IMG/VR virus record: IMGVR_UViG_3300050821_017219
Location: 1-64,000 of that record
Origin: a virus
Direction: 5' to 3' (one strand)
Length of the DNA stretch: 64,000 bases
Positions 18,043 through 64,000 of this stretch are shown here, one piece after another. Numbering within the stretch: position 1 is the stretch's first letter; each line of letters starts with the position of its first letter. Below the pieces are notes generated by a model. The model was not told where the DNA came from, made no database searches, and saw only the letters and a list, made by a program, of their open reading frames with translations. Both the position numbers and the translations under genes were made by a program.

Positions 18043-18077
18043 TCGGCTCTAGAAGGTTTCAAGAAAGCAAATACAAA

Positions 18078-22896: not shown

Positions 22897-22949
22897 TGAC
22901 GACAAGCCTACCGCCGCGTCTGCTTCTCCGCAAGCCGAAAGCGGACGCG

Positions 22950-32123: not shown

Positions 32124-32254
32124 CGCTGCCGATTTTTTGGATGATTCTGCTGCTCGGCGCCTTCGCTATCGTTTTCTGCGGTCTGCTGATCTGGCTGTCA
32201 TTCGTCGAGACGAAGTTTTTAGACGGCTCCAACAAAAACGGCGACGGCGAATGA
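32120..32254 (+). CDS. 44-aa membrane peptide (not in track)
   Basis: MTLPIFWMILLLGAFAIVFCGLLIWLSF...; ATGA-coupled on both sides. Confidence 0.55.
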   Translation: MTLPIFWMILLLGAFAIVFCGLLIWLSFVETKFLDGSNKNGDGE

Positions 32255-48227: not shown

Positions 48228-48620
48228 ATGAAAGCCGATAGTTCAATCGCGCTTGTCATTAGCTGGTACGCCCAACCGATGCTTTTGGCCGTTCGCGAAC
48301 CACGTGGTTTGTGTTTGCCAGGTGGAAAAGTAGAGCCCGATGAGACGCCACAAGCAGCGTGCTGCCGTGAGCTTCGCGAAGAGACCGGCATCAAAACATT
48401 ACCTGGGCACATCGTCTATATCGCCGAGGGCTTGAGCGGCACCGAAGACGATCGGTTGGTGCGCATCTACCACGTCCGAGAAGCAATTCTACGTGGAGCG
48501 TGTGGTCAGTGGACGACCTTCGAGAAGCTGCTCGCCGAATCGCCGTTCGCCGACTTCTACAGGCGCCATCTGCCGAGCGGCATTGTTCACCTACCGCTGA
48601 CGCGCTTCCACGTTGGCTGA
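48228..48620 (+). CDS. NUDIX hydrolase
   Basis: GGKVEPDETPQAACCRELREETG Nudix box. Confidence 0.9.
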   Translation: MKADSSIALVISWYAQPMLLAVREPRGLCLPGGKVEPDETPQAACCRELREETGIKTLPGHIVYIAEGLSGTEDDRLVRIYHVREAILRGACGQWTTFEKLLAESPFADFYRRHLPSGIVHLPLTRFHVG

Positions 48621-48634
48621 GCTACACTGACGCC

Positions 48635-50773
48635 ATGCCTTCCACCCGCCTCTCCAGCGCCGAAAAGCCCACCATCGAAGGTCTCGTTGCAGAACGCCGC
48701 ACCTACGACGGCAAGTGGGTAGGATTTTGGAACGACGGTACGATCGTTGTCGGTCATCCGGTGGTGAACAAAACGATCGCGCGGAACGTACCCAAAGCGC
48801 TCTGGTTTATCATCGCCGATGACGTTTCGCTCTACGACGAAGCTGAACTAAAAGGACTCGTCAAAGCGGCGCGGAAGGCATATGACCTCCACAAGCGCGA
48901 GCCACATCGAGTCCGAAGCGAAGATCTACTCCGTCTCATGCGTTCGTATGCGCCGCCAACGCATGCGGCAGCATCAGAGACGACGCGTCTCTCCAGCGGC
49001 GACGTCTCCTCGTCCGATCGCCCGACGACGACCCCCGACGAGTCCGGCCCCCGCATCGTCGCCGCCGGTACCTACGAGGCGGTGCTGCGCCGTTGTCTCT
49101 CAGATTTAGGATCGAACGACCCGGACATCTTGCTGCGGATGAGCGGCGACTTCTGGAAGCGTTGCCGCGACGCCGGAGTCGATCCGAAGGTGGCGGCGAC
49201 GACCATCTACACCGCCGAGCGGCATCACCATGAAGTCGCGCGCGTCGTGATCAAAGAAGCATCCGAAACATCTTCAGCGTCAGAATCGCCAACGATGCTC
49301 GGCGAAGAGTGGGAAGTCATCGTCAGGCGTCACGGCGCATCGATGAACAAGATCGTCGAAGCTGCTGGTAAGAAGGCTGACGCCGTCGAAGGCCCGAACG
49401 TCATCTTCGGAGACTTCCGCGACGATGAGAAGGCAGCGGCGTTTGCGCGCAAGATGACGAAGGCTGGTTTTGTTAGCTACTATGGCCCGCACAAACAAAT
49501 CTCTGCTGAGGCCAAAGAGACTTCGACGTCGCCGTTTCAGCGGCCAGACGCGCTAACGCATGCGCGCGGCTACTACAAGCAGTATCTACAGGTCGAGAAG
49601 GAAGATCCGGGCGGTCTCCACTCGAGCGAGCTTCGCGGCTACCTTCTCGCGCAATTGCTTCGCCAAGATGGATCGATCCCCACCTGGGATGAAGCGGTCG
49701 CGCTGATCGATGGCGGCGCCGAATTGTCGGACGCAGAAATCGCCGCCATCGCCGCCGCTGTCGTCGCCTCGGGTGGATCGACCGACAAAAACGTGGAGAA
49801 GCTAGGCGGAAGATCATTCAGTCACTATGGCGCGCCACGACGATTGACCGACCACGAATTGGCGCGCGTGCAGCAATGTATCCACGCAGCAGACGAAGCA
49901 ACCGAAGCCGACGACAAAAAACCAGACTGGGCGCAGCGCCGTTTCCTCAAGCTGATCAAAGAGGTCCGCACCAACGGCGGGCGCGCCCGAATCGCCGACC
50001 TGCGCGATCGCCTTCCATTGCTATCGAAGTCGGAGTTCGATCAGACGCTCGTACGGATGCAGCGCGAGGGCTTCATCGTACTCTACCCCATCGACAACCC
50101 TCAAGAGATGAAGCAGCGCGACATCGACTCCGCCGTGAGCATCGCCGGTGACCCGCGGATGCTTATCTACATCGAGCCGGCGTGGGAGAGCTTCGTAGTC
50201 AACGAGGCTGAGGAGATGCCGCGCGGCGAAGGTGGCGTGCAGTCGCAAATCGCAGCGCGAATGCAGCCGGTTGAAGTAACGCCAGACAAATCAGCTTGTG
50301 TGACGTGCATCCCATGGATCAAAGTCTCTCGCGACCCCGCGCAGCACGCGGCCATCGCTGAGCTCGCGAAGAAGTTCGGCAAGATCCGAACGCCGCGCGA
50401 TGTCTACGCCATCGTCGGCGACGACTTGAACCGCGAGACACAAGAGGTCTTCCTCGTCATCGCGCTGAACGTTCACTCGCGGCTGATGTGCGCCCCCTAC
50501 GAGATTGCACGAGGGCAGCGTGACCGAGTCGCCGTCGGCATCGACAACGTCATGGACGCCGCCTCCGACGCGCGATGCGCCGCCTTTCTAGTTTGCCATC
50601 AACATCCTGGAGACTCACCCGAGCCCTCCGAGGCCGACTGGAAGCTCTACAAGGATATCGTCAAGGCGACCCCACCTGGTAGAGTTTGTATCGACAGCCT
50701 CGTCGTCGGACCAGCGAGCATCTATAGCTGCGCCGAGAAAAAGCTCCACAAAATCGCTGCGTCGAGGCGTTGA
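48635..50773 (+). CDS. Multidomain protein with C-terminal RadC-like JAB domain
   Basis: QEVFLVIALN...HQHPGDSPEPSEAD; start refined to ATG 48635, 6 nt after TACACT. Confidence 0.78.
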   Translation: MPSTRLSSAEKPTIEGLVAERRTYDGKWVGFWNDGTIVVGHPVVNKTIARNVPKALWFIIADDVSLYDEAELKGLVKAARKAYDLHKREPHRVRSEDLLRLMRSYAPPTHAAASETTRLSSGDVSSSDRPTTTPDESGPRIVAAGTYEAVLRRCLSDLGSNDPDILLRMSGDFWKRCRDAGVDPKVAATTIYTAERHHHEVARVVIKEASETSSASESPTMLGEEWEVIVRRHGASMNKIVEAAGKKADAVEGPNVIFGDFRDDEKAAAFARKMTKAGFVSYYGPHKQISAEAKETSTSPFQRPDALTHARGYYKQYLQVEKEDPGGLHSSELRGYLLAQLLRQDGSIPTWDEAVALIDGGAELSDAEIAAIAAAVVASGGSTDKNVEKLGGRSFSHYGAPRRLTDHELARVQQCIHAADEATEADDKKPDWAQRRFLKLIKEVRTNGGRARIADLRDRLPLLSKSEFDQTLVRMQREGFIVLYPIDNPQEMKQRDIDSAVSIAGDPRMLIYIEPAWESFVVNEAEEMPRGEGGVQSQIAARMQPVEVTPDKSACVTCIPWIKVSRDPAQHAAIAELAKKFGKIRTPRDVYAIVGDDLNRETQEVFLVIALNVHSRLMCAPYEIARGQRDRVAVGIDNVMDAASDARCAAFLVCHQHPGDSPEPSEADWKLYKDIVKATPPGRVCIDSLVVGPASIYSCAEKKLHKIAASRR

Positions 50774-50800: not shown

Positions 50801-50831
50801 ACGACGCATCGATTCGTTGGAGAAAGAAAAA

Positions 50832-51377
50832 ATGACAGCCACGACAACGCCGACGCCGGTGACGCCAGAAGCCGCCGATGACATCGTCGACTTCGACGAG
50901 CGAAAATTCGAGACGCAGGAAGACTTCTCGAAGGCGCTCTTCAAGGAGATCCTCGATCGATCCGGCCTGGATTCGTTCGGAGACGTCCCGATCCCCAAGC
51001 GCGCCGTGTGGGAAGACCCCGGTGGGTCGCTGATGAACATCGAGATCAACGAGCCGTCGCCCTTCGACAAAAACTCCATCGTACTTGGGCTCTTCCACGA
51101 CGATGAAGAGGTGCGTGTCTATACCCTCCCGAAACAACGAGGCGAAGCGAAGCGCTACTGTCTCTCCAAGCGCGGTCGCACGTTCGTCGTCGAGACCTTC
51201 TCGTCGCTCGAGATGATCATCGACTCGTTGGCCGAAGAGTATCACGTCTTAGGTATCACTACCGAAGTCATCGACGACGATGACGACGACGACGAAGACG
51301 AAACTCCAGCGAATGGCGTCACAAACGATGGCGTTGCTGCAACGCCTTCGTCGGCAACGCCGTCGGTGACGTCGTGA
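50832..51377 (+). CDS. Acidic hypothetical protein
   Basis: GGAG SD; poly-Asp tail. Confidence 0.6.
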   Translation: MTATTTPTPVTPEAADDIVDFDERKFETQEDFSKALFKEILDRSGLDSFGDVPIPKRAVWEDPGGSLMNIEINEPSPFDKNSIVLGLFHDDEEVRVYTLPKQRGEAKRYCLSKRGRTFVVETFSSLEMIIDSLAEEYHVLGITTEVIDDDDDDDEDETPANGVTNDGVAATPSSATPSVTS

Positions 51378-52183
51378 ATACCACCGTCACGTGCGTCTAT
51401 CGCATCGCGCAAGGCGGCGCGGCGTTGACGACGCTTCAGTCGAAGGTCGCCGCCGTCGTCGTCAACTCTTCCATTCTGTCGACGCTCGGCGCGCGTATCA
51501 CGAGCGACGTCACTACCATCGCCGCCGGTTTCGCCATCCGAACCATCGTCTTTTCGATCGTGCCGACGGTCGCAGCCGGCGCGACGGCAGCGCTCAACTC
51601 CAACGACTTCCTCTCCGGCGTGTCGGTCTTCTCGGCCGGCTCTGACTACATTCTGCCGCCCGTCGTCAAATTCGCTGGTGGAAACCCCTACAAAATCGCG
51701 TCGGCGCGCGCGACGTTGAAGGCCGTCGGCGTCAACGTCGTCGCTGGTGGCTCAGGCTATACCGCAGCGGCGGTCGCAACAGCCGTCGGTGCGATCAACC
51801 CCAACCATGACATCAAGCTCGGCCAAGCCCCACCGAAGCCTGTCTTGATGACGTTGACGCTTGGCGGTGGCGGAGCCATCGTCGGCGTCGCCATCACCGA
51901 TGCGGGCGCTAACTACGAAGGCGTTCCCTCGGTTGTCGTCACCGACGTCGTTGGGGGTGGAAGCGGCGCCATCATCGATCTGTCGATGGGCGTCAGCGCC
52001 GTCGATGTGATCTACCCCGGGCAAGGCTTCCAGGCGGTTCCGGCGTGTCAGCTGATCCCAGCCTTCCGTGTGATGTTCCCCGACGGACCTTCGCAGGCGG
52101 CACCTTTCGCGAACCTCATGACGACGGCGATTGCGCAAGCAGTGATGACGCCGGTCGTTGCGGATGCGCCGGTGTTGTCATGA
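51374..52183 (+). CDS. Virion structural protein with GSGY-type beta repeats
   Basis: Four repeats: AGSDYILPPVV, GGSGYTAAAV, AGANYEGVPSV, PGQGFQAVP. Confidence 0.6.
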   Translation: MNTTVTCVYRIAQGGAALTTLQSKVAAVVVNSSILSTLGARITSDVTTIAAGFAIRTIVFSIVPTVAAGATAALNSNDFLSGVSVFSAGSDYILPPVVKFAGGNPYKIASARATLKAVGVNVVAGGSGYTAAAVATAVGAINPNHDIKLGQAPPKPVLMTLTLGGGGAIVGVAITDAGANYEGVPSVVVTDVVGGGSGAIIDLSMGVSAVDVIYPGQGFQAVPACQLIPAFRVMFPDGPSQAAPFANLMTTAIAQAVMTPVVADAPVLS

Positions 52184-53685
52184 CGCGCGAAGATGACAAC
52201 TACGACGAGCGAGACGACGATGACGGCGAAGGCGAGCCGCCTGAAGAAGTCGTCGAAGCCAAAACGAAGGCAATACCGCCGAAGAAGCGCAATCCGAAAG
52301 CGCGAAACGGCGTCGGTGGAGCGTTGGGTGGTGCGCCCGAAGATTCGCCGCGTGAAGCTGAGCTGCTCTGGCTGTGGATTCTCGCGCGACTTCCCAGCGA
52401 AGGCCGCTCCGCCTACGACGTGACCATCCAAGTCTTGCAGCTCGATCCACCCGCCTCAAACGGCCGCGCCTTCATGGTGGGAAGCTTCGGCGGTGGCGCA
52501 ATCCGCGGCAGCGAAACTGTTGATCCGTCGCAGGCGTTGATCAGCTACGTCACCGACAACTTTCACATGCCGCGGTCTCAGTCGAGACAGTCGGTGACCT
52601 ACCAGATCCGCTTCATCTGGGCATCGAACAGCCAGCAGATGAAGCGCGGCGAGCTGACGCTTCCCCCGCGCGACGAGATCATCGCCGTTCGACAAGAAGA
52701 GGCGCGCCAGCGGCAGGCCAACGGCGAGCCGGTGACCCCCTACAACCCGCCGCCGATGCATCAGCAAGGCGTCGGTGTGCCGCAACCATGGCCGCAGCCG
52801 TTTGGCTTTCCGCCGTCTTACTACCCCCCGCCTGCCGGTGGCGATGCGCAGATGATGCCGCAGCTGCTGACGATGATGCAGGAGATGTGGCGCGCGCAGC
52901 TCGAAGGCCGCCCACCCAATCCCGCAGCTGCCGGTGTCGCTGCGCCACCACCCGCGCCTCTCAACGAAGACAGCATCGTACAGAAAACGACCGCCAGCGT
53001 CTTGATGGCGCTGCAGCAAGCCGGCATCTTGACGAAGCCAACCGCCGGTGTCGCCGCCGCAACGCCAACGCCTGCGGTCTCGCCTGCGTCGCCGGCTGCA
53101 TCGAATCCATTCGCAGGCATGATGGAAAAAGCCGTCGGTCGCATGTTCGAGGCGGCCGTCGGTGAGGTGGAGAAAAGCGTCAAGAAGACCATCGCTGGCG
53201 TCGGCAAGCCGCAAGACGACGACTATTACTTCGACGACGATGACGATGGAAAGAAAGGCGGATCATCTTCGCCTGCATCTGCAGCCGTTGGCGTTGGCGC
53301 GCCACCGACACCGCCGAAAGAAGACGCCTTCGATCTGCCGTGGGCGACGAAGCCAGTCGCCGATGCGAAGTGGGGCGACGGCCGCCCAGTCGTCTACGCC
53401 GAAGACAAAGAGACCGGCAACTTCTCGTGGCAGGGCGCGCTCATGAGCAACCCCACCGTGCTCGAGAAGGGGATGGAAGCCGCGCAGGGTCTCGCCGGAG
53501 CGTTGACGAACATCGTGAAGCAGGTCGGCGCCAAAGCTTCCGCCGGCTTCGCGCAGGCGCCGCAGAATCCGCCGCCGCAGATGACGCCGAAGACGGTTTC
53601 GATACCGCCTGCCGCAACGGTTGTGGCGGAGACGCCCGCGGGCGCGGTGGATGCGACGCCAAAGTCTTGGAAAGACGGCGACTAG
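52180..53685 (+). CDS. Pro/Ala/Gln-rich putative scaffold or morphogenesis protein with repeated GV(G/A) motifs
   Basis: Low-complexity linkers; NGVGG, QGVGV, AGVAA twice, AGVGK, VGVGA. Confidence 0.6.
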   Translation: MTREDDNYDERDDDDGEGEPPEEVVEAKTKAIPPKKRNPKARNGVGGALGGAPEDSPREAELLWLWILARLPSEGRSAYDVTIQVLQLDPPASNGRAFMVGSFGGGAIRGSETVDPSQALISYVTDNFHMPRSQSRQSVTYQIRFIWASNSQQMKRGELTLPPRDEIIAVRQEEARQRQANGEPVTPYNPPPMHQQGVGVPQPWPQPFGFPPSYYPPPAGGDAQMMPQLLTMMQEMWRAQLEGRPPNPAAAGVAAPPPAPLNEDSIVQKTTASVLMALQQAGILTKPTAGVAAATPTPAVSPASPAASNPFAGMMEKAVGRMFEAAVGEVEKSVKKTIAGVGKPQDDDYYFDDDDDGKKGGSSSPASAAVGVGAPPTPPKEDAFDLPWATKPVADAKWGDGRPVVYAEDKETGNFSWQGALMSNPTVLEKGMEAAQGLAGALTNIVKQVGAKASAGFAQAPQNPPPQMTPKTVSIPPAATVVAETPAGAVDATPKSWKDGD

Positions 53686-53706
53686 CAGCTCTGCTACGAT
53701 TGCGGT

Positions 53707-55047
53707 GTGACAACGACGCCGCATTGGCCGCAGGTAGTGGTGCCGCGCCGTGTCGGTGTCGCCGGTCTGACCGATTTTGAGGCGCACTTCGCGTCCGACC
53801 CCAACTTTGCGTCGGCGTGGAACGATGTCGGTGGCCAGCTCCTCGCCGAAGGCGCTAGCAGCTCGCAGGTCGACCAAGCGAAGACGTGGTTCGTCAACGC
53901 CGTCGAGGGAGCTGTCCCTGGGGTAACCGGCGACCAGGCCATCGCCTCCGCGAAGCAGCTCGTGCTGCTTGGGCAGACGGTCATGGGCGCCGTCGCTACG
54001 GTGCAAGGTCTTCTCCAGACCGTCGAAAGTGGGTCGGTCCCACAAATTACGCAGGCGTTTACCGGCGTCTTGATCAGCCTCGGCGTCGGCACTGGGTTAG
54101 TCTCGGCCGGTATCGGCGCGGCCATCGCGCTCGGCATCTCCGTCGTGTTGGCGGCGCTTCAAGACCTTGGATTTTTTACTAGCAACGCCCCTCCGACATT
54201 TGACATCCCTGGGTGCGGCAAGTGGTACTGGGTGCCGGACTACCTCATCGGATGCATGGGCGTTCAAGCGAAGGGCGGCACTGCCAACGATCCGCTCTTG
54301 ACGCAACCCTTTCATGTCGCGCCGGGCTCCCCCAACTGGCGGACGTTCCCGGTGCCGGGCAACATCATCCCATACGTCGAAGGCGCGGACAAAGAATGGT
54401 ACGTCCCTGGGTTGGGGATGGTTGGCCACTGGAAGGGCATCTTCATCGACTACGGCGCCGTCGATGCAAGCGATGGGCGGCGGCCGATCGATCGCGCGTT
54501 TCCGAATTTTCGGCAGCTCGAAGCGGACAGCGGACCGGGAGCAAGCGACTTCCAGCGCGCGTTCGGTGGCGCATGGCGAAGCAACGCGGAGTATGCGTTC
54601 AACGGGTTGAAGCCGCAGCCAGACGAACAGGTGCTGCTCCATACCATTCGATTGTGGAACCGTTCGCACGATGGCCCCGCAGTTACGCTCGATCAAAGCA
54701 ACGCGACCTACGCCAATTCGCTCGTCGACGCCGCCGTCAACAACGTGATGTCGAGTGACATCGGTTTGCTGTCTGGCCAAAGCTTGCTCGTCAACGCCGG
54801 TGGGTTGAAAACCCAAACGCCACGTGTCGTCACGCTGCATCTAGGCGGTAGTTTCGATTCAGCGACGTCGCCAACAACCGGCCTTATGTCGTCGACGGGT
54901 GGAAAAATTCTCGCGGGTACAGCTGCAATCGGCGGCGCCGCACTGCTCGGAAGCGCGGCGTACGCCTTCGCAAAGAAAGAGAGCATCGGCGCCGTCTGGA
55001 AGAACGTCTTCAAGACGGTGACGAAACCTCTGAGAGGTGGAAGATGA
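53707..55047 (+). CDS. Membrane-associated putative virion protein
   Basis: Internal and C-terminal hydrophobic segments; GTG start 6 nt after TACGAT. Confidence 0.6.
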   Translation: MTTTPHWPQVVVPRRVGVAGLTDFEAHFASDPNFASAWNDVGGQLLAEGASSSQVDQAKTWFVNAVEGAVPGVTGDQAIASAKQLVLLGQTVMGAVATVQGLLQTVESGSVPQITQAFTGVLISLGVGTGLVSAGIGAAIALGISVVLAALQDLGFFTSNAPPTFDIPGCGKWYWVPDYLIGCMGVQAKGGTANDPLLTQPFHVAPGSPNWRTFPVPGNIIPYVEGADKEWYVPGLGMVGHWKGIFIDYGAVDASDGRRPIDRAFPNFRQLEADSGPGASDFQRAFGGAWRSNAEYAFNGLKPQPDEQVLLHTIRLWNRSHDGPAVTLDQSNATYANSLVDAAVNNVMSSDIGLLSGQSLLVNAGGLKTQTPRVVTLHLGGSFDSATSPTTGLMSSTGGKILAGTAAIGGAALLGSAAYAFAKKESIGAVWKNVFKTVTKPLRGGR

Positions 55048-55370
55048 GACGAAGACACGGTCGTAGAAATCCTTCGACGCAAACGACGACGCTGCTGATC
55101 GCCGGTGGCGGTTTGGCGCTGCTCGGCGTTGGCGTCTACCTCTTCACGAAGAAGCCAGCGGCGGCGACAACGACGACTGCGATCACGGCGACGTCACCAA
55201 ATTCTCGACCGTTCGGTGACCCCGCCAACACGTCGAGCGTCGCGTTCGCGTGCAACACCTGCTGGAAGCTGAACGCACTCGGCCATCCGACGCAGGCGAC
55301 GGCGTGGTGCACGAAATGCACCGCCAACGGTGGGGTAGTACCGCAAAGCGCTGCTCAGTTGTATACTTGA
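55044..55370 (+). CDS. Small membrane protein (RRNP, TM, two CxxC)
   Basis: MRRRHGRRNPS; TM; CNTC/CTKC. Confidence 0.6.
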   Translation: MRRRHGRRNPSTQTTTLLIAGGGLALLGVGVYLFTKKPAAATTTTAITATSPNSRPFGDPANTSSVAFACNTCWKLNALGHPTQATAWCTKCTANGGVVPQSAAQLYT

Positions 55371-55418
55371 GGCGCCGGTAGTCATTTTTGACGGCGACGC
55401 AAGACGAAAAGATAAAAA

Positions 55419-55775
55419 ATGGCCGACATTTACGACACGCTGACCCCCGCCGACCAGGCAACGGTTCGCTCGAAGCTGCTCGCGATCGTGCAGTCGAAGC
55501 CCTGCCCGAACGTCGACGTGACAGGCATCACCACCGTCGACAGCCTCACCAGCGCGGACAATCGCGGCATCGCCATCGATTGCTTCCAGCAAGCGCACAA
55601 GGTTGGCGCCGTCGCAGGCGCGCTCGATCAGGCGACTTACAGCGCGCTCGTCGGATGGTGGCCCGCGCGGCCGTTGTGGCAGAAAGCGGCGATCGTCGGC
55701 GGAGGCGTCGCAGCGGTGGCGGTTGGATACCATCTCATGGCGAAGCGAAGCCGTCGGCGTCGGCTAAGTCGTTGA
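55419..55775 (+). CDS. Small protein with C-terminal TM and Arg tail
   Basis: AAIVGGGVAAVAVGY followed by KRSRRRR. Confidence 0.6.
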   Translation: MADIYDTLTPADQATVRSKLLAIVQSKPCPNVDVTGITTVDSLTSADNRGIAIDCFQQAHKVGAVAGALDQATYSALVGWWPARPLWQKAAIVGGGVAAVAVGYHLMAKRSRRRRLSR

Positions 55776-55841
55776 TGTAAACGTCTGAAATTTCAGACAA
55801 TTTTCAACTTTCAAACGCAAAAACAACCAAACGAGACTCCG

Positions 55842-56240
55842 ATGACGAAGAAACATCAGACGTACATGATCGTTGGTGGCGTCGCGCTCGCGGCGCTCGC
55901 CGTCGGTGGCATCGCCTACGCGCGCATGAAGGCGGCAGCGCCTCCAGTTCCTGCCGGTCAGCTTCCCGCCGGGACCCCCGCGACCACTTTCACCGCCGGT
56001 ACGAAGTACACCTTCGCCGCCGTCCTCCCCGCGGGCGCGACCGACCAGGCGACGCTCGTGACGATGCTCCACACCGCAGGGTGGCAGACGCCTGCGGTCA
56101 TCTTCTTCGGTCCGACGAACACCGGAACGATTCCGACCGGTCTCGAGGCCAACACGTCGGGGTACGTCGCGACGGGCATTTGGCAGGGCCCCGCCACACC
56201 GGTACCGGCGGGTGTCATCGCTGTCGTGTCGCCTCCGTGA
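55842..56240 (+). CDS. N-terminal TM protein
   Basis: IVGGVALAALAVGGIAY. Confidence 0.6.
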   Translation: MTKKHQTYMIVGGVALAALAVGGIAYARMKAAAPPVPAGQLPAGTPATTFTAGTKYTFAAVLPAGATDQATLVTMLHTAGWQTPAVIFFGPTNTGTIPTGLEANTSGYVATGIWQGPATPVPAGVIAVVSPP

Positions 56241-56641
56241 TCGACGCTGCGGTCTCCTCACAGCTTTCGACGCTTCGCTTTCGGCAAAGTCTCGTCGACG
56301 CTGCGCCATCGCCCGGCGGCAGTAGCGAAATCGTCGCGCTCGTTCCGTTCAACTTCGCGACGACGACGTTGGTGCTCGGCCCAATCCACGCTGGGTGGGT
56401 CGTCAACGAGGTCGTCTACGACATCCTGACGCCCTTCGCTGGCGCAACGGCGCTGAAGTTCGGCACGTCGACCAACGCGAGCCTCTTCTTCGAGCTCGAT
56501 ACCCCCATCATCGGCATCGCGCAGCAGTACGTTTCTCCGCTCATCATCGTCGCTCCGATCAACGATATCCTGCTGTTGAACGTCAGCGGTGGCGCTTTGG
56601 CGGGCGCAGGTTTACTGTTCTACCGGATCTTCACGCCGTAG
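56237..56641 (+). CDS. Beta-sandwich virion protein, paralog of the C-domain of ORF 56652
   Basis: AGWVVNEV.YDILTPF.G.....GT...AGAG versus ANAVVARA.LNITTPY.G.....G...AGAG. Confidence 0.55.
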   Translation: MIDAAVSSQLSTLRFRQSLVDAAPSPGGSSEIVALVPFNFATTTLVLGPIHAGWVVNEVVYDILTPFAGATALKFGTSTNASLFFELDTPIIGIAQQYVSPLIIVAPINDILLLNVSGGALAGAGLLFYRIFTP

Positions 56642-56651
56642 GTAAGACCAG

Positions 56652-57467
56652 ATGGCGAACGCATTTCAACGACTTGCCGGCGTCATCGCCAACTTCTTCC
56701 AGATCGGCGGCCCCGCCGGCCCCGGCTGGAACGCGAACGGCGGCGCCATCGAAGGCCGCAACGCCGCCAATTCAGCGTTTGCGATCGTTCGGGGCGCGAC
56801 CCCCGTCGGCGACAACGACCTGACGACGAAGACCTACGTCGATACGATCTTCAAGCCGATCCCCGTCTCGCTTCAGTTCAACGGTGGCAGCGCGCTGCCG
56901 AGCAACAGCGGCACCGAGCAGTACTACGTCGTCACGACGACCGGGGTCAACGCGACCATCGGTCAAGTTCTCTGGGATGACGGGTCTGGCGTTGGAACGG
57001 TCACCGTCCTTCCCGCGAAGACGGGCAACGAGATCGTCACGACGGCTTCGTTCTCTGGCGGCACGATCACGCTTCAGTCGAACCAAAACTACGTCTGGTC
57101 CGGTACGGCGTGGCTCAACATCTCCCCCTCGGTTGCTGGCGCGCTCCTCTGCATCCGTCTGCCGATCACCAATGCGGCATCGCAGAGCTCCGCCACAACG
57201 ATCCCCGCCAACGCCGTCGTCGCGCGAGCGCTCCTCAACATCACGACCCCCTACTCCGGTGGCGCGACCATCTCCGTTGGCCAAACAGGATCGACGGCGC
57301 TGCTGATGGCGACGGGTGACAACGTCGCGACGCTCGCCAACATCTACGACGCCCCCCAAGACACCGCGTGGGGCGCGAGCGCGCTGGCGTTGCTCGTGAC
57401 CGTCGGTGGCGCGCCAGCTGCAGGTGCTGGCTTCGCGGTTGTATATTACAGCATCCCGCAGGTTTGA
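56652..57467 (+). CDS. Multidomain virion protein
   Basis: FQIGGPAGP; TPVGDNDLTTKTYVD fibre-like motif; beta-sandwich C-domain. Confidence 0.65.
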   Translation: MANAFQRLAGVIANFFQIGGPAGPGWNANGGAIEGRNAANSAFAIVRGATPVGDNDLTTKTYVDTIFKPIPVSLQFNGGSALPSNSGTEQYYVVTTTGVNATIGQVLWDDGSGVGTVTVLPAKTGNEIVTTASFSGGTITLQSNQNYVWSGTAWLNISPSVAGALLCIRLPITNAASQSSATTIPANAVVARALLNITTPYSGGATISVGQTGSTALLMATGDNVATLANIYDAPQDTAWGASALALLVTVGGAPAAGAGFAVVYYSIPQV

Positions 57468-57489
57468 CGCATGCAACTTCGAGTCTGAG

Positions 57490-57744
57490 ATGAGCGGTTT
57501 CAACAACAACAGCGGCACGACGCAGTCGTCTTTCGAGATCGGCGGCCCCGCCGGACCGGCGCTGCAAAGCGATCCGCTCGTTCAAGCGATCAATCTGCTC
57601 GACCCGACGGGAACGATCCTTCTCGCACTGCGAGCCGGTTGGGCCGTCAACCCCAACGACGTCGTGACGCTCGTGCGGCTGCAATCGATTCTGAATCCAC
57701 CGCCGCCGTTGGGCGATCCATGGGCGTCTTCTTCCGCAGGATGA
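57490..57744 (+). CDS. Paralog of the N-domain of ORF 56652
   Basis: FEIGGPAGP...NDVVT. Confidence 0.55.
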   Translation: MSGFNNNSGTTQSSFEIGGPAGPALQSDPLVQAINLLDPTGTILLALRAGWAVNPNDVVTLVRLQSILNPPPPLGDPWASSSAG

Positions 57745-57757
57745 TGGGGATGACATC

Positions 57758-58489
57758 GTGAGCCAACAAGGACCGACCGGCTTCATCACCTCGCAGGGGC
57801 TGCCCAACCCGAAGCTGCCCGATGGCCAAGGCGTGTTGGCTCGTGTTGGACCGCACCGTGAGGTCTACACGAACCTTGTGCTGCCCGACTTCAAGACGTC
57901 GGCGGACGAGGGGAGCTACTTCACGGGAACGAACGCAACGTTTGGCGCGGCTATAGCCGCAGCAAATCAAGCGGCCTTCTCGGCGACGTCGGCTATCTTC
58001 ACCTTCTTGAACAAGGCTGGCGTCGGTGGGCCGCGAACCTATCTCGACTACATCCGTTTGATTTGCACGGCAGCTGGAACAGCGTCGGCGAGTATGCAAA
58101 TCGGCGTCGTTACCGACGCGATCGTACGTGGAAGCGCCGGAACCCCCGTGACGTTGGTGTCGCCCAACCAAGACGCTGGTGTCGGCGCGAACACGCAAGT
58201 GCTCTACACCCCGACGGTAGCGGCTGCAGGTCTTGCTGCGAGAAACGTCGATCGCGCTTGCGCCAAAGGCGCAGGACTCGCGATAGGCGATGAAATTCTG
58301 CTCGTCTTCGGAACCGTCGAGAAGTCAGCGAGCGCCGCATTCGCTGCAACAGCCGGGCGATTCGTGGTGCCGATGGCTCCAGTCATCCTTGGGCCTGGCA
58401 GCGTTCAGAGCGCCGTCATTCATGCGTGGTTTCCGAGTATCACCGCAGCAGCATCGTTCGAGTTCGCCGTTGGTCTCCTCGAACGTTGA
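57758..58489 (+). CDS. Beta-rich putative structural protein
   Basis: 243-aa alternating beta pattern within the morphogenesis block. Confidence 0.55.
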   Translation: MSQQGPTGFITSQGLPNPKLPDGQGVLARVGPHREVYTNLVLPDFKTSADEGSYFTGTNATFGAAIAAANQAAFSATSAIFTFLNKAGVGGPRTYLDYIRLICTAAGTASASMQIGVVTDAIVRGSAGTPVTLVSPNQDAGVGANTQVLYTPTVAAAGLAARNVDRACAKGAGLAIGDEILLVFGTVEKSASAAFAATAGRFVVPMAPVILGPGSVQSAVIHAWFPSITAAASFEFAVGLLER

Positions 58490-58522
58490 TTGTCAAGCGC
58501 TTTCGCTGCTAGACTGACACCC

Positions 58523-58999
58523 ATGGCGAAGAAACCCGAGCAAGACCGCGCTCTCATCATCGTCGGCATCGTCGGCGCTGCTGCGGTCGTCGGAGGGGCG
58601 CTCTACTTCGCCTTCACGTCGCAGCCGAAGACAGCGACGGCATCGCAGGCCAACCCCACCCCGACGCCGCCAACGACCGACACCGCTTCGGCGACTCCGC
58701 CAACGCAAGCGCCGTCGTCGACGACTTTCGCGATGCAAGTCACCGGCGACACGTCGATCGCGCTGAAGAGCGGTGAATCTGTCGCGCTTTCGTTGCCAAC
58801 CGTTCCTGCGCCAGCGGCGATGTGGCAGGTCGTCATGGAGAACCACGACGGTCGTGCGGAATACACGGTGGTGGATGCGACGCACTTCAACGTGATCGCA
58901 GAGATGCCCGGCGTTTCGGTGCTGCGGTTCACCCCCATCAGCGCGCAGGGCGGATCGATCGGCCTTCCTGGCCTCAACATTACGCTGTCGATCAGCTGA
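58523..58999 (+). CDS. N-terminal TM plus Ig-like protein
   Basis: Start refined to ATG 58523, 7 nt after TAGACT. Confidence 0.6.
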   Translation: MAKKPEQDRALIIVGIVGAAAVVGGALYFAFTSQPKTATASQANPTPTPPTTDTASATPPTQAPSSTTFAMQVTGDTSIALKSGESVALSLPTVPAPAAMWQVVMENHDGRAEYTVVDATHFNVIAEMPGVSVLRFTPISAQGGSIGLPGLNITLSIS

Positions 59000-59421
59000 T
59001 GAGCGCCTGGACGGGCATCATCATCGGCGGTCTCGTCGGTGGAGGCTTAGGTTTCGTCGCGACGAAATTCTTGTTGAAGAAGCCTGACGCTGGCGTCATC
59101 GGCGCTGCCGCAGCTGCGGGCGCGCTCGCCGGTGGCGCGTTGACCGCGACCCCCGCAACCGCCTCGTCGTCACCGACGTTGCACATGCTCTTGTTGGCGC
59201 ACGGCGACACCGCCCTCGCGACGAAGATCGGCGACGTCGTCGATTTGCTTCCCGCCGCTGGTTTGACGGTGAGCGCCATCGACGCGCATGGCAGCGACGC
59301 CATCGTCGTTGCGTCGGTCAATCCCGCCACCGTCAATGCGGTGAAGCTCGGCGGTGCGCTGCTGGCGGTGACGCTTTCCGACGCGTCGAAGGTCAACGTC
59401 AAAATCACCGTCGCCGCTTGA
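58999..59421 (+). CDS. Two-TM plus Ig-like protein
   Basis: Gly-rich TMs; C-terminus ends ITVAA, similar to the ITLSIS ending of the previous ORF. Confidence 0.55.
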   Translation: MSAWTGIIIGGLVGGGLGFVATKFLLKKPDAGVIGAAAAAGALAGGALTATPATASSSPTLHMLLLAHGDTALATKIGDVVDLLPAAGLTVSAIDAHGSDAIVVASVNPATVNAVKLGGALLAVTLSDASKVNVKITVAA

Positions 59422-59460
59422 CTTTCGACGCTAGCGGCGTCTTGCGGTAGACTGAACGCC

Positions 59461-59727
59461 ATGGACATCAATGGCGGCGCTAAGGTAGGGCTCGCGACGG
59501 TGCTCGGAGGCGGCGCCGGTCTCGTCTTCGGGTTCTTCGTCGGTGAAATCCTCGACGTGAAACGTCCCGGTCAAATGTCGCTGGCGTTGGCGGCGCTGGG
59601 TGGGCTCACCGGCGCGATGGTCGGCGGAACCTTTGTCGCTCCGACGCCTGCGTCACCGACAACTCCGGCTCTGCAGCCCATCGCTTCGACGGCCGTGACG
59701 ACTCCGCCGACGCCTGCGACGCCGTAA
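59461..59727 (+). CDS. Small two-TM membrane protein
   Basis: Gly-zipper hydrophobic segments; ATG 7 nt after TAGACT. Confidence 0.6.
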   Translation: MDINGGAKVGLATVLGGGAGLVFGFFVGEILDVKRPGQMSLALAALGGLTGAMVGGTFVAPTPASPTTPALQPIASTAVTTPPTPATP

Positions 59728-59731
59728 AAAG

Positions 59732-62035
59732 ATGAGCGACTTCTCGCCTTCGCTGCAAAACGCGGCCGCCGCCGGTATCCCGACGACGCGGCAGCCGTAT
59801 CTCGACGGCAACGCTGGCGTTCGCCAGAGCCTCGAAGCGATGGCGCTGAAGATGCGCGAGGGCCGCGTTGATCCTGCGGTAGTCGGTTGGGCGGGTGGCG
59901 TTTTGAAGGATGCGGGGTTGGACGGTCGCGACGGCTTTCCGATCCGTCGTCAAGTCTCGGCGTTGCTCGAAGCGTTGCGCAGCCAAGTCATTTACGCGCC
60001 CGATGCGTACGGCGCTGAAGTCGTGTCGAGCGCGGCTGCAACGCTCTGTCTACGACCGAACCTCTGTCTTCACCGCGGCGACTGTTTCCCGAGCGGGACG
60101 TTGCTTCTTCGAGAAGACTACGAGCTCGTTCCGATCGAAAAGATCAAGGTAGGCGAGCGAATCTGGGGGCTCGACGGTTGGACGACCATCAAAGCGACCG
60201 CCTTCAAGGGCAACCTCGCCGTCGACGCGATCGAGATGAACAACGGCTCGACGATGTTTTTGACCGGCGAGCACAAGGTCTTCGTCGGGCGATGCAAACA
60301 CGATCGGACGATCTGCCCGTCGTGCTATCCGGCGCTACGACGAGAGCGCTTCGAGCGGGTCTCTGTTGCGGACCTTCAAGAAGGAGAGGTTCTTCTTCAA
60401 CCCGAGCGAATCGCCTTCGGCTCTGAAGAACCAGATCCCGGACGCATGTATATCGAAGGGCTGTACATCTCCGACGGTTGGTCGGAAGAAAACCGCTTCG
60501 CCATCTCCGGCAAGGACGGCTGTCGAAAAGAAGCGCAGAAGCACGAGGTCAAAGCGATCTGTGAGCGGCTCGGCATCCCGACCTACTGGCACAAGAGGTA
60601 CATCCGCATCAACGATGCCGCATGGGCCAATCGTCTAGCGCAGCGTGGAACGCGTGCACGCTTCAAGCACATCGAGACGCTCAACCTCAACGAAGCCGCC
60701 GCCGAAGCACTGCTCCGCGGGGTTATGGCCGACAGTACCGCGAACACGAACGGCCCCGGTCGAACATTCTCGACGACGTCTCGAGAGCTGATGGTTCAGA
60801 TGCGCATCTTGCAGCGCATGTTCGGCGTATCGACGGGGCTCAAAATGTTGACCCCCGCGCAACACGGCGGCGTTGGAACGCATAATCTGTGGCGTCTCGG
60901 CGTCCGAGCGACGAACGGCCGTACCGAAAAAACGCTGGCCGTGAAGTCGATCGACCGCGCCGTCCGAAAGGTTCCGTGTTGGGACATCCAGACGGAAGAC
61001 CACTACGTCTACCTCGCCGAGCATGATGTGACGGTCTCCAACTGTGACGATCTCGCCGTCGCGCTTGGTTCTGCAACCCTTTCGTTGGGCATTCCGACCG
61101 TCATCGTGAAGCAAAACTTCGGCGGCGAAAATCAAGAGCATGTTCTCATCGCCTTCCAGGACGAGAACCAAGAGTGGACCTACGCTGATCCCTCGACGAA
61201 GCTTCCCGTCGGTCGCGCACCGCAAGGTGCCGTCGATGAGATCTGGATCGACCCGATGGGGCCGGTTGGACCGATTCCAGAGGCTGGCGCTGAAATCGTC
61301 ACGCTTGGATCTGCGATAGCGTCTTCGTTTTCGTCTGAGATTCATTCGCCAGTCGAAAGACGGATGCATTTCGCCGGCAACCATTGGTGGCATCACGATG
61401 CGTCGGGTGTCTCTGTCTACGTCGACGACGCATGGCTTTCGACAGGTCTCTCTGGAATCCCTTCCGAAGTCGGCGTCGGCACCATCTTCGGTGCGCCAAC
61501 GGTCAACGAGATGATCGATTTCGCTTCGGTGGTCGGCGCCGAGATGAAAGACATCGGCGCGGTACCGACGACGTGCACCGGTTGGCCGAAAGACCCCGTC
61601 GGCTACCAAGCGTGGCTGATGGACATGCAAGACACGATGGCCGAGTTTCAGACGGCGAGCGACGCAGCGTTGGCGAAATTCAACTCGACGTCGAAGTATC
61701 TGCGCGACTTCACGTCGGCACCGGAGGAAATGAACGCGCTCGCCGATGTGGCTCGACAAATCACCGACTTGGATCGCCGACTGCGCGCAGCAACGGGTGG
61801 CGCCGGTTGCTCGGCCCCGACCTACGCCGACGTGCAGCAACCCCAGGCTATCGATTGGGACCTGCAGGGCTATCAAGGCGCCGACTTCGCCGCGAAGGTC
61901 GTCGAAAACGCCGGCAAAAAAATCGCAGGCGCGGCGCAACCAGCGGGCATCGCGTTTGGTGGTCTCATCGTCGGCGCTGCGCTCGCCGTCGCCGGCTTGA
62001 TCGTGTTGGACCACATGCTGCCGTCGCGTCGTTAG
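59732..62035 (+). CDS. Intein-containing transglutaminase-like cysteine protease with C-terminal TM
   Basis: Spliced product reads HRGD-CDDLAVALG...EHVL...WTYADPS (Cys-His-Asp triad). Confidence 0.8.
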   Translation: MSDFSPSLQNAAAAGIPTTRQPYLDGNAGVRQSLEAMALKMREGRVDPAVVGWAGGVLKDAGLDGRDGFPIRRQVSALLEALRSQVIYAPDAYGAEVVSSAAATLCLRPNLCLHRGDCFPSGTLLLREDYELVPIEKIKVGERIWGLDGWTTIKATAFKGNLAVDAIEMNNGSTMFLTGEHKVFVGRCKHDRTICPSCYPALRRERFERVSVADLQEGEVLLQPERIAFGSEEPDPGRMYIEGLYISDGWSEENRFAISGKDGCRKEAQKHEVKAICERLGIPTYWHKRYIRINDAAWANRLAQRGTRARFKHIETLNLNEAAAEALLRGVMADSTANTNGPGRTFSTTSRELMVQMRILQRMFGVSTGLKMLTPAQHGGVGTHNLWRLGVRATNGRTEKTLAVKSIDRAVRKVPCWDIQTEDHYVYLAEHDVTVSNCDDLAVALGSATLSLGIPTVIVKQNFGGENQEHVLIAFQDENQEWTYADPSTKLPVGRAPQGAVDEIWIDPMGPVGPIPEAGAEIVTLGSAIASSFSSEIHSPVERRMHFAGNHWWHHDASGVSVYVDDAWLSTGLSGIPSEVGVGTIFGAPTVNEMIDFASVVGAEMKDIGAVPTTCTGWPKDPVGYQAWLMDMQDTMAEFQTASDAALAKFNSTSKYLRDFTSAPEEMNALADVARQITDLDRRLRAATGGAGCSAPTYADVQQPQAIDWDLQGYQGADFAAKVVENAGKKIAGAAQPAGIAFGGLIVGAALAVAGLIVLDHMLPSRR
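60083..61042 (+). mobile_element. Intein (320 aa) with LAGLIDADG-type homing endonuclease
   Basis: CFPSGT block A; LTGEH block B; GLYISDG and LLRGVMADS endonuclease motifs; WDIQT..HY block F; ends VSN followed by Cys+1. Confidence 0.9.
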
Positions 62036-62042
62036 GCGTCGA

Positions 62043-62507
62043 ATGATCATCGTCAAAGGGAAGGCAGTCAGCTTCGACATGGCGAACGGCGACGAAATCG
62101 ATGCGCCAGCGCGCTCGGCGATGTTGCACGATCCGCGCGGCAAATTCTGGCGTCGAAATTCTATTCTTGTTGCGCCATTCAAACGCGGCGGCGGTGGTGA
62201 AGTCGACGGCGACAGCGACTCGAAAGACTATCTCGGCCGAACGCATCTGACGCGCGTCGGTGATGTACCGCTTCCCCCGAAAGAGTTGTCGGCCTGGACG
62301 TACGAAGGCGAAGTGAGCGAGATTTGGTACACGCGTCACGGCGCAAAGTACGGCGGCAAGCGGTTCCGCCACGCGTTCAACAAGTCGTTGCTCGGCCGGC
62401 TCGTGAAGGGAACCGGCAAGGCGCGGCTGTACAGCCGTGGTAGTCTCTACCGATTGGAGCTACCGCGCGGCGCCATTGTCGATGGGAGAGGATTTTTATG
62501 GCCGTGA
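62043..62507 (+). CDS. Hypothetical protein
   Basis: 154-aa ORF in operon context. Confidence 0.55.
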   Translation: MIIVKGKAVSFDMANGDEIDAPARSAMLHDPRGKFWRRNSILVAPFKRGGGGEVDGDSDSKDYLGRTHLTRVGDVPLPPKELSAWTYEGEVSEIWYTRHGAKYGGKRFRHAFNKSLLGRLVKGTGKARLYSRGSLYRLELPRGAIVDGRGFLWP

Positions 62508-63019
62508 TCTGGAAGTCTGTCGTCGGTTACGAGGGGTTGTACGACGTCTCTGACGAAGGACAGATCCGGCGTGTGGCGCCGGGGCGACGTACACACCCCG
62601 GGCGTATCGTTGTCGGTGGCGTCTCGAAGGGGCGTTACCGCATCGTCAAACTCTATCGAGGAACGACGAAGAGCGACTTCCGCGGGTTCTCCGTTCACGG
62701 TCTCGTCGCGGCAGCCTTTCTTGGCCCGCGTCCGGAAAGGGGCGAGGTGAACCACAAGAACGGCATCAAGACGGACAACAGGCTCGAGAATTTAGAGTAC
62801 ACAACCCGCCTCGGAAACGCGCGCCACGCAGCAGTGAACGGGCTGCTCCGAAACGGCGAACGAGTCGTCGGCTCCAAGCTTACGGCCGACAATGTTCGCT
62901 CCATCCGCGCTCTGTCCGCTTTTGGCGTTCCGAAGCGACGGATCGCGAAGATGTTCGGCATCGCGCATTCGACCACGCAAAGCATCATCGACCGTCGTTG
63001 GTGGAAGCACGTCGCATGA
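62498..63019 (+). CDS. NUMOD4-HNH homing endonuclease
   Basis: WKSVVGYEGLYDVSDEG; VHGLVAAAFLG; VNHKNGIKTDNRLENLEY. Confidence 0.92.
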   Translation: MAVIWKSVVGYEGLYDVSDEGQIRRVAPGRRTHPGRIVVGGVSKGRYRIVKLYRGTTKSDFRGFSVHGLVAAAFLGPRPERGEVNHKNGIKTDNRLENLEYTTRLGNARHAAVNGLLRNGERVVGSKLTADNVRSIRALSAFGVPKRRIAKMFGIAHSTTQSIIDRRWWKHVA

Positions 63020-64000
63020 TCGATTATTCGCGCATGATTGACGCCAGCCGCAACGCGCCCGAACACGCGGCATCTGCGCCCGTCTTCTACGAAACAGCGA
63101 AGACGAAGACGCGCGCGCGTAGCCGTCGTTTGACAAAGCGCAAGAAACAAGCTTCACTTACAAAAGCGCGCGACCGGAAATCCACGAACCGTCGTCGTCG
63201 AAGCACCCCAGGGAAGGCTGCATCGATGGCAAAGCGAAGAATGTCGAGAAAGCAGCGCGCAGCGGCGCTGAAGAACCTCAAGAAGGCTCGCTCCGCCCGT
63301 CGGAGCAAAGCTTCTCGGCGCGGGATGCGCGTTCGGCTTCATCGGAAGTCGCCCCGTCGGCGCCGCTACATGACCGGCGGTGGTGTGAAGACGAAGCGTC
63401 GTCGTCGCCGCAAGGCCAAGCCGGAAGCAGAAGCAACACCGAAGCGTCGTCGGCGTAAGTCGGGCGGCAAGCGGAAGTCGGCCAAGCGAGTCGCGGCTGG
63501 CAAGAAGGCCGCTCGTACGCGCAAGCGCCGTCACTCCCGCAAGGGTGGCGCACCGAAACGCCGTCGTCGTCGGTCGCGCAAAGCCTCGGCGGCTCCCCGG
63601 CGGCGGCGTCGGCGTTCACGTCGGTCGTCTCCCCGTCGTCGTCGGCGCAGCCGCAAGACCGGTCGGGCGATGTCGATGCGACTCCCCCGTCGGGCGCGCA
63701 AGGTCTACGTCGTCGCCGCCGAGAAGCGCCGTCGTCGTGGACGCGGCCGTCGTCGTCACGGCGCGATGGAAAATCCGCTCTCTGGCGTCGAGCTGTTCGT
63801 CGGAAGCCTCTTCGGGTTGACCGGCTTCGCCATCGGCGATCTCACCGACCGCCTCATCGCGACCCACGCGTTGACGTTGAAGAGCGCCGCGACCACCACC
63901 ACGCCGGCCCTCTACGCCGACAACCCCCCGACGACCGGCAGCTACGCTGGCCTCTTCAATCCGACGGCGATCACTTCGCCGATGAACCTCCCCCGATGGG
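63016..64000 (+). CDS. Protamine-like Arg/Lys-rich protein, putative DNA-condensing core protein (partial, not in track)
   Basis: Hand-translated frame open from ATG 63016 to the window end; SPRRRR, APRRRRRR and TPKRRRR runs, then GAMENP and a hydrophobic segment. Confidence 0.8.
   Translation, partial: MIDYSRMIDASRNAPEHAASAPVFYETAKTKTRARSRRLTKRKKQASLTKARDRKSTNRRRRSTPGKAASMAKRRMSRKQRAAALKNLKKARSARRSKASRRGMRVRLHRKSPRRRRYMTGGGVKTKRRRRRKAKPEAEATPKRRRRKSGGKRKSAKRVAAGKKAARTRKRRHSRKGGAPKRRRRRSRKASAAPRRRRRRSRRSSPRRRRRSRKTGRAMSMRLPRRARKVYVVAAEKRRRRGRGRRRHGAMENPLSGVELFVGSLFGLTGFAIGDLTDRLIATHALTLKSAATTTTPALYADNPPTTGSYAGLFNPTAITSPMNLPRW

Follow-up and report, generated by a model that had tools for sequence, protein, structure and literature searches.

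What kind of virus particle is encoded by the genes that crowd the end of the 64,000-nucleotide stretch analysed here, i.e. positions 1 to 64,000 of IMG/VR virus record IMGVR_UViG_3300050821_017219 (hereafter the window)? A preliminary description, made from the sequence alone, had seen in the region from position 50,832 onwards the morphogenesis block of a membrane-containing, possibly tailless virus grafted onto a PolA replicon, and had expected its capsid and packaging ATPase genes just past position 64,000. Most likely, this block is the virion module, extending from 50.8 to 70.8 kb, of a complete, circularly assembled and temperate virus of about 78 kb that infects a soil bacterium. We give somewhat better than even chances to a particle in which a jelly-roll shell, a membrane (deduced from gene content) and DNA condensed by protamine-like proteins come together without a packaging motor, and which would represent a widespread, uncultured lineage of non-tailed viruses; this assessment is computational in its entirety.

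The contig is 78,382 bp long, and the window comprises its first 64,000 bases with identical numbering. Its first and last 97 bases form an exact direct repeat, by which the assembly closes on itself, and IMG/VR lists it as a virus record with a direct terminal repeat (DTR) and a CheckV completeness of 100; on these grounds the genome is taken as complete. An inverted terminal repeat was not found in it. Hallmark genes could therefore be sought in the entire genome. By hmmscan, 77 open reading frames (ORFs), among them every ORF of at least 400 amino acids (aa), were compared with PHROGs, with Pfam or with the two together, and no match to a terminase, a portal, an HK97 capsid, a tail tube, a tape measure or an ATPase of the FtsK/HerA/A32 type was obtained. 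Searching the entire sequence in six frames gave nothing either, both with Terminase_6N, TerL_ATPase, Phage_portal and Phage_capsid and with Pox_A32, FtsK_SpoIIIE and DUF87/HerA, all of which matched control genomes. The only ORFs with a Walker-A motif encode the D5-type primase-helicase, Sak4 and the Dda-type helicase. When this genome and four relatives with complete or near-complete genomes were scanned for P-loops under relaxed criteria, no candidate emerged in the structural blocks, nor did a Walker-A scan give one in the structural block on the 17-kb contig of a distant relative. Among the ORFs of the genome, none of portal size is left unexplained, and a long helical one that could encode a tape measure is missing. 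That no gene for a terminase, a portal, an HK97 capsid, a tail tube or a tape measure can be recognized, as noted before for 64 kb, thus holds at the sequence level for all 78,382 bp; terminase, portal and HK97 capsid genes elsewhere on the contig, which the preliminary description had named as evidence against its view, were looked for on the complete genome with a negative result at the sequence level. The packaging ATPase expected past position 64,000 did not turn up either: the FtsK/HerA/A32 type was found neither in profile and Walker-A scans of this genome nor in motif scans of five relatives. As far as profiles and motifs can tell, the genome appears to lack the terminase, portal and FtsK/HerA-type ATPase that characterize tailed phages and Varidnaviria.

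For the capsid genes the expectation was borne out to the extent that good candidates lie at 64707-67709, where three conserved, beta-rich ORFs of 455, 249 and 283 aa, free of transmembrane (TM) helices and signal sequences, directly follow the gene of an Arg-rich protein. The 455-aa protein is the best conserved one in comparison with four related IMG/VR genomes (G001-G004), with 46-63% identity vs 38-51% for the DNA polymerase PolA. Its gene has the highest G+C content at third codon positions (GC3; 0.86) among all genes encoding at least 200 aa, and the three genes together head the codon-bias ranking; on the contig of a relative with only 31% identity, the homologue reaches a GC3 of 0.96, again the top value among long ORFs. 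Such conservation and codon usage would fit a very abundant virion protein. A word-based search yielded at least 270 homologues of this protein and an exhaustive HMMER search 178 cluster representatives at 50% identity, which are nearly all unnamed, about 400-490 aa long and in many cases encoded on contigs of 60-82 kb; longer contigs (95-148 kb) with homologues exist as well.

Two of the three candidates were modelled, and both models are jelly-rolls. The AlphaFold2 model of the 455-aa protein, based on a 32-sequence alignment, is beta-rich and of fair quality, with a predicted local distance difference test score (pLDDT) of 76.7 and a predicted template-modelling score (pTM) of 0.76. In Foldseek it gave weak matches only (E 2e-3 or worse, template-modelling scores (TM-scores) below 0.1 for named capsids), which include papillomavirus L1 and the capsids of adeno-associated virus and of circular Rep-encoding single-stranded (CRESS) DNA viruses. 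By its model, the protein belongs to the jelly-roll and not to the HK97 fold class, with no family assignable; because the alignments span residues 63-426, the model further suggests one jelly-roll that is formed from both chain ends and carries an inserted domain. The best match of the 283-aa model is chain b of Haloarcula hispanica icosahedral virus 2 (HHIV-2), a shell protein of an internal-membrane virus. This chain is probably the penton, since it starts at residue 39 and the first 40 residues of the HHIV-2 penton protein are disordered (PMC6414509). Jelly-roll matches of the models also include P3 of PRD1/PR772, Sulfolobus turreted icosahedral virus (STIV) and Haloarcula californiae icosahedral virus 1 (HCIV-1), besides HHIV-2, and the 283-aa model weakly matches polyomavirus VP1, which like the match of the 455-aa model to papillomavirus L1 stays at an E of about 1e-3 and TM-scores of 0.08-0.26. 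None of the fold searches with the two models listed an HK97, portal or terminase fold, which does not prove that such folds are absent. At the profile level, hhalign detected no relationship among the 455-, 249- and 283-aa families or between these and a 243-aa protein, and searches of PDB sequences with the profiles of the three shell candidates gave nothing meaningful. The ESM Atlas yielded no informative match to the 455-aa protein (best score 0.79) and unnamed viral clusters only for the 243-aa protein, for whose family pattern scans of IMG/VR returned just one relative that was already known.

A second conspicuous component of the block is the Arg-rich protein of 516 aa, whose protamine-like nature is confirmed. 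With 17% Arg and 8% Lys it has a net charge of +113, and it consists of about 250 aa of Arg/Lys/Ser tracts, after which come Asn-Pro (NP), a TM helix and, at the C-terminus, a Cys-rich domain. The same succession of an Arg tract, NP, a few residues and a Gly-rich TM helix occurs in three proteins of this genome (55044-55370, 62998-64548 and 67706-68359) and in four to seven proteins per genome in three of the four relatives (G001, G003 and G004); the scan found none in G002. Judged by its sequence, this build seems to be used across the lineage to anchor a polycation to a membrane, and the module itself could be such a tethered polycation or a processing site. A further basic protein, Lys/Arg/Gly-rich, 101 aa long and with KGG-like repeats (phrog_30946), is encoded at 69921-70226 beside the GroES-like gene and is found in three of the four relatives.

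What speaks indirectly for a membrane is the number of proteins that could reside in it. A Kyte-Doolittle hydropathy scan, by which all TM helices were called, reproduced the run of small to medium-sized Gly-rich TM proteins, some with Arg/Lys-rich ends, that had been described before. At least 12 membrane proteins are predicted in the structural block. At least eight Gly/Ala-rich TM proteins precede the three shell candidate genes, the small to medium-sized ones being rich in Gly, Ala and Thr, and further membrane proteins start past the window at 67706, 68366, 68796 and 70964.

Also membrane-anchored is the product of 59732-62035, for which the earlier designation as a transglutaminase-like protease is reasonably supported by its sequence. 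Six homologues, with identities down to 23%, have C438, D439, H470 and D486 without exception, every homologue terminates in a hydrophobic helix, and Transglut_core matches just under threshold in three of four intein-free homologues (17.2-22.6 bits vs a cut-off of 23); a search of PDB sequences with an intein-free homologue profile gave nothing meaningful. Hint and LAGLIDADG matches in the same ORF reveal an intein, i.e. residues 118-437 (320 aa), which is a clean insertion relative to five intein-free homologues and sits directly before the invariant Cys438 in the motif GD/CDD. Cys438 doubles as the +1 splicing residue of this intein, which occurs in none of the five homologues. The enzyme, with its putative Cys-His-Asp triad, is a candidate maturation protease. 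A second protease candidate is a small matrixin-like zinc metallopeptidase at 47564-48094 (Peptidase_M10 with 25.8 bits vs a cut-off of 24; GC3 0.83), encoded directly upstream of the gene for the RadC-domain protein. A free-standing HNH/NUMOD4 homing endonuclease, which is a mobile insert outside the virion, follows 460 bp downstream of the intein-bearing gene; its homologue in G001 adjoins the Dda helicase instead.

Whether this module belongs together with the replication genes can be judged from the relatives. The genomes of the lineage range from 69 to 78 kb, with terminal repeats in two of the four relatives, and a distant relative is known from a 17-kb contig only. The four share with the present genome a set of genes, namely those for SNF2, exonuclease, Sak4, PolA, Dda, RadC and integrase, for the 269- and 500-aa, transglutaminase-like, 154-aa and Arg-rich proteins, for the 455/249/283-aa trio and for the GroES-like protein. 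Since PolA and the structural module co-occur in all four and also in the 50%-complete G005, replicon and virion module seem to be a long-standing pair, and a recent graft looks unlikely. The order transglutaminase-like, 154-aa, Arg-rich, 455, 249, 283 is kept at about 30% identity even on the 17-kb contig of the distant relative, which comes from a metagenome-assembled genome (MAG) of the Polyangiaceae. PolA matches in G005, G003 and G002 contain in-frame stops (TGA, once TAG), and in G002 the gene is broken into three; possible causes are sequencing errors, inserts and recoding.

Outside the lineage, the block found no match among 50,697 GenBank phage records by megablast, nor did its 455-, 271- and 243-aa proteins by tblastn, and the 455-aa protein matched none of the 72,556 PLSDB plasmids (tblastn). 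No paper describing this lineage was found in a literature search outside of which most subscription journals lie. Relatives with 85-95% similarity occur in soil, mine and watershed metagenomes, where each run covers small shares of the stretch (at most 0.09). In a metatranscriptome library from soil, three short contigs (206-240 nt, 90-95% alike) map to the shell gene (64773-65513) and to the end of the 283-aa gene (67656-68042), and may reflect expression in a relative or DNA carry-over. Concerning the host, the genome has no tRNA genes, and matches in GTDB are limited to short contigs in one Polyangiaceae and one Chloroflexota MAG, in which binning could be wrong. The 17-kb contig of the former (GC 68%, shell protein 31% identical) carries no flanking host genes. 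A 2.3-kb contig of the same MAG contains a 54%-identical shell gene, i.e. two viruses of the lineage were binned with one myxobacterial genome. A host among the Polyangiaceae is a weak lead.

Table 1. Predicted features of the 78,382-bp genome; positions are those of the window and its continuation.
Feature	Position	Strand	Remarks
SNF2 helicase	6191-7840		family match
Lysozyme- or lytic-transglycosylase-like protein	25534-26271	+	C-terminal TM helix/anchor
Exonuclease	28291-29529	-	family match
D5-type primase-helicase	32068-33966		Walker-A, family match
Sak4-like ATPase	37626-38705		Walker-A, family match
Family A polymerase (PolA) fused to uracil-DNA glycosylase (UDG)	40965-43586		family match
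Dda-type helicase	43731-44507		Walker-A, family match
RadC/JAB domain	end of 48500-50773		family match
Acidic 186-aa protein	50817-51377	+	net charge -24, poly-Asp tail; first gene of block
269-aa Gly/Ala-rich structural protein	51374-52183	+	short GGSGY-type repeats
About 500-aa Pro/Ala-rich low-complexity protein	52180-53685	+	conserved; acidic blocks
446-aa multi-pass membrane protein	53707-55047	+	TM scan; N-terminal TPHWPQ leader
108-aa protein	55044-55370	+	starts MRRRHGRR; Arg tract, NP, TM helix (TM scan)
132-aa single-pass membrane protein	55842-56240	+	TM scan
Variable cassette of 3-4 small, putatively beta-rich ORFs	56237-58489	+	ORFs at 56237, 56652, 57478, 57758
158-aa small Gly/Ala-rich membrane protein	58523-58999	+	TM scan
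140-aa small Gly/Ala-rich membrane protein	58999-59421	+	TM scan
88-aa small Gly/Ala-rich membrane protein	59461-59727	+	2 TM (TM scan)
Transglutaminase-like Cys-His-Asp enzyme with intein	59732-62035	+	membrane-anchored; C-terminal TM helix
Basic 154-aa protein	62043-62507	+	conserved in all relatives including the distant one
Free-standing HNH/NUMOD4 homing endonuclease	62498-63019	+	family match
Protamine-like protein, 516 aa	62998-64548	+	runs past window end; conserved in all relatives
455-aa major capsid candidate	64707-66074	+	jelly-roll model; best conserved protein of lineage; GC3 0.86
249-aa second shell candidate	66103-66852	+	conserved
283-aa penton candidate	66858-67709	+	conserved; single jelly-roll (model)
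Three membrane proteins (217, 138, 171 aa)	67706-69311	+	217-aa protein with Arg tract, NP, TM helix
GroES-like co-chaperonin	70445-70756	+	conserved in all four relatives
Tyrosine integrase	75083-76471	-	family match

Accessory roles in assembly or attachment can be proposed for some of the remaining genes of the block (table 1). The acidic 186-aa protein, with homologues in three of the four full relatives and no family match in the PHROG and Pfam scans, is possibly a scaffold or chaperone for the basic proteins. The 269-aa protein, present in all four, has weak PHROG matches to virion structural proteins (phrog_460, E 3.5e-7). The Pro/Ala-rich protein of about 500 aa, for which the same scans gave no family match, might be scaffold-like or link capsid and membrane. 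The TPHWPQ leader, followed by VGV...GLTD, opens the products of both 53707-55047 and 68796-69311, proteins that are otherwise unrelated, and PHWP is kept at residues 5-8 in the G001 and G004 homologues of the former. Because among the four full relatives only G002 has the cassette at 56-58 kb, where it adjoins fibre genes, its products are likely spike or receptor-binding accessories rather than parts of the core shell; tblastn found no match for it among GenBank phages. Profile searches gave no PDB or family match for the 154-aa protein.

Outside the block, the genome also encodes a dNMP (deoxynucleoside monophosphate) kinase, thymidylate synthase, a methyltransferase and a DUF932 protein, all detected by family scans. 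At 258 aa, the Dda-type helicase ORF falls short of the 438-465 aa that it has in each of the four relatives, which may point to truncation or splitting here. Collagen-like fibre genes, located within 13.6-27.9 kb (13656-19820 and 26305-27858), differ in their heads, which are BclA_C-like, resemble a pectate-lyase-like beta-helix or are unassigned; between them, on the opposite strand, lie genes for a glycosyltransferase (21721-23043) and an Rv2525c-type glycoside hydrolase (23845-24492). The lytic enzyme at 25534 was rightly described as TM-anchored. Over its first 150 residues it resembles the lysozyme-type portions of baseplate-hub PHROGs (E 8e-8), with a weak similarity to a lytic transglycosylase of the PDB (E 0.39), and it is a candidate for a virion-borne or lysis enzyme.

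Taken together, these components could work as follows. The 455-, 249- and 283-aa proteins would build an icosahedral jelly-roll shell, with the 455-aa protein as the major capsomer and the 283-aa protein at the vertices, i.e. as penton, and the shell formed by these two might dock on small single-pass membrane proteins, as is the case in HCIV-1 (PMC6414509). Inside, a lipid membrane would be studded with about a dozen small Gly/Ala-rich membrane proteins, and the basic tails of the Arg-NP-TM proteins, together with the 516-aa protein, would tie the DNA to this membrane and neutralize it. If basic tails do bind and neutralize DNA at the membrane, the DNA would be enclosed during assembly rather than pumped: the 78 kb would be condensed and wrapped without the help of a motor, for which the nucleoprotein core of Sulfolobus polyhedral virus 1 (SPV1) can serve as a model (PMC8459092). 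The membrane-anchored Cys-His-Asp enzyme, once restored by intein splicing, would probably mature the particle, viral GroES would assist folding of the shell protein, the acidic 186-aa and Pro-rich 500-aa proteins would serve as chaperone or scaffold, and the collagen-like fibres would act as spikes.

Several points weigh against this proposal. The evidence is computational throughout, and the virus is known here from its genes alone. Fold models cover the 455- and 283-aa proteins only. Missing an ATPase at the sequence level is no proof of its absence, and the task could fall to the Sak4-like ATPase or to a motor of the host. Moreover, the positive-inside rule puts the Arg tails on the cytoplasmic face of the membrane, which in PRD1-type assembly is the outward, capsid-facing one. 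Given this topological conflict, either the membrane would be formed, de novo or from open sheets, around the DNA, or the particle would have an envelope instead of an internal lining. Enveloped pleomorphic viruses, too, typically have many small TM proteins.

The alternative that survives best, although we consider it unlikely, is an enveloped or pleomorphic budding virus, in which a membrane with small TM proteins wraps protamine-bound DNA, and the jelly-rolls are spikes or matrix instead of a closed icosahedral shell. This would agree with the very many TM proteins, with the failure to find a packaging ATPase and with the Arg tails beside TM helices, which suit DNA lying at the cytoplasmic face of a membrane that buds. 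Less easily reconciled with it are the conserved trio, free of TM helices and signal sequences, at the top of the codon-bias ranking, the jelly-roll models of both modelled proteins, one of them with a shell protein and probable penton of HHIV-2 as its best match, and the conservation of a viral GroES. In addition, the pleomorphic prokaryotic viruses known to us are several times smaller.

Slightly less probable still is a strict PRD1- or sphaerolipovirus-type member of the Varidnaviria, with an ATPase and a unique vertex too diverged for profiles, and with DNA pumped into a membrane-lined procapsid. The jelly-roll matches to PRD1/PR772 P3, STIV, HCIV-1 and HHIV-2 are in its favour, and so is the fact that a packaging ATPase is normal for internal-membrane viruses of this realm (PMC8328091). 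Of the large internal-membrane virus envisaged in the preliminary description, the virus type without tailed-phage hallmarks and the position of the capsid genes have stood up, whereas the packaging ATPase and the PRD1 model have not.

By comparison, a tailed phage that has diverged so far that no profile detects its HK97 capsid, portal and terminase is very improbable. Fibres of the collagen-like and pectate-lyase-like kinds and a lysozyme domain similar to that of baseplate hubs do occur in tailed phages as well, and one feature-based atlas match, a lead only, is to clusters labelled Uroviricota; yet the genome is complete, every ORF of at least 400 aa is accounted for or unlike an ATPase or portal, a long helical tape-measure ORF is missing, and the best conserved structural proteins model as jelly-rolls, with no HK97 match in any fold search. 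A non-viral integrative/conjugative or other mobile element, with the membrane proteins as a secretion or transfer apparatus, could explain the tyrosine integrase, the DUF932 protein, the many small membrane proteins and the wall-degrading enzyme, but is equally hard to credit, as no VirB4/VirD4-type ATPase was seen, no relaxase is among the family matches of the scanned ORFs, tblastn found nothing in the plasmids, the related genomes are uniform in size (69-78 kb) with terminal repeats, and the genome encodes jelly-rolls whose matches are capsid-like, along with fibres and a phage-type set for replication and nucleotides.

If the motor-free, membrane-containing jelly-roll virion is real, its implications go beyond a single genome. 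To our knowledge, double-stranded DNA viruses of bacteria above about 20 kb are almost all tailed phages that pump their DNA into HK97 capsids. Tailless membrane-containing bacterial viruses are mostly smaller than about 20 kb and have a motor of the FtsK/HerA type, and the only case of condensation-based, motor-free assembly that we know of so far is a 20-kb archaeal virus. Having neither HK97 capsids nor an FtsK/HerA motor, a lineage of about 75 kb that is common in soil would widen the range of bacterial virion architectures, and motor-free, protamine-style condensation would not be confined to archaeal and eukaryotic viruses. That the lineage is common is indicated by the 178 shell-protein clusters at 50% identity and by the relatives in soil, mine and watershed metagenomes. 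Lacking hallmark genes, such viruses may be missed or misclassified by pipelines that depend on these, and the conserved 455/249/283-aa trio offers a ready marker set for finding them. Whether we are dealing with a major new group of bacterial double-stranded DNA viruses (of family rank or higher, possibly outside the existing realms), soil-widespread, with a jelly-roll shell unrelated in sequence to known capsid families and motor-free encapsidation by condensing DNA on membrane-anchored protamine-like proteins, is a more tentative matter, to which we give somewhat less than an even chance; a higher rank may be deserved should the shell protein turn out to have no kinship with known capsids.

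Among known systems, several share parts of this design. Likeness to the Tectiviridae and PRD1 lies in the tailless build, an internal membrane in which many small proteins reside and a wall-degrading enzyme carried by the virion, features which here are deduced from genes. Adenovirus core proteins (pVII and mu) show that Arg-rich proteins can condense double-stranded DNA within a jelly-roll shell, in a particle that is matured by a cysteine protease; this is an analogy only, as with papilloma- and polyomaviruses, since all of these are eukaryotic viruses without a membrane and the fold matches have TM-scores of just 0.08-0.26. Sphaerolipovirus-like viruses carry a packaging ATPase beside their major capsid protein genes, and the Thermus phage P23-77 has a genome of about 17 kb. 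In contrast to P23-77 and to the Sphaerolipoviridae/Simuloviridae (HCIV-1, HHIV-2 and SH1; PDB 6H9C, 6H82; PMC6414509), the present genome has no detectable ATPase gene, has direct terminal repeats or is circular, encodes PolA and a protamine-like protein, and is two to four times larger. The nearest analogue would be SPV1 of the Portogloboviridae (PDB 6OJ0; PMC8459092), which it would resemble in jelly-roll shell, membrane and nucleoprotein core. The counterpart of the basic nucleocapsid protein of the Portogloboviridae would be the conserved 516-aa protein, which has a net charge of +113 and no similarity to VP1, and their internal lipid layer would correspond to a membrane holding the at least 12 predicted membrane proteins of the structural block. 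We found no description of such a build in bacterial viruses of this size. Thus, the combination of jelly-roll shell, membrane and nucleoprotein, as in SPV1 and sphaerolipoviruses, would be new in an apparently bacterial lineage, known from its genes alone, with a genome about four times that of SPV1.

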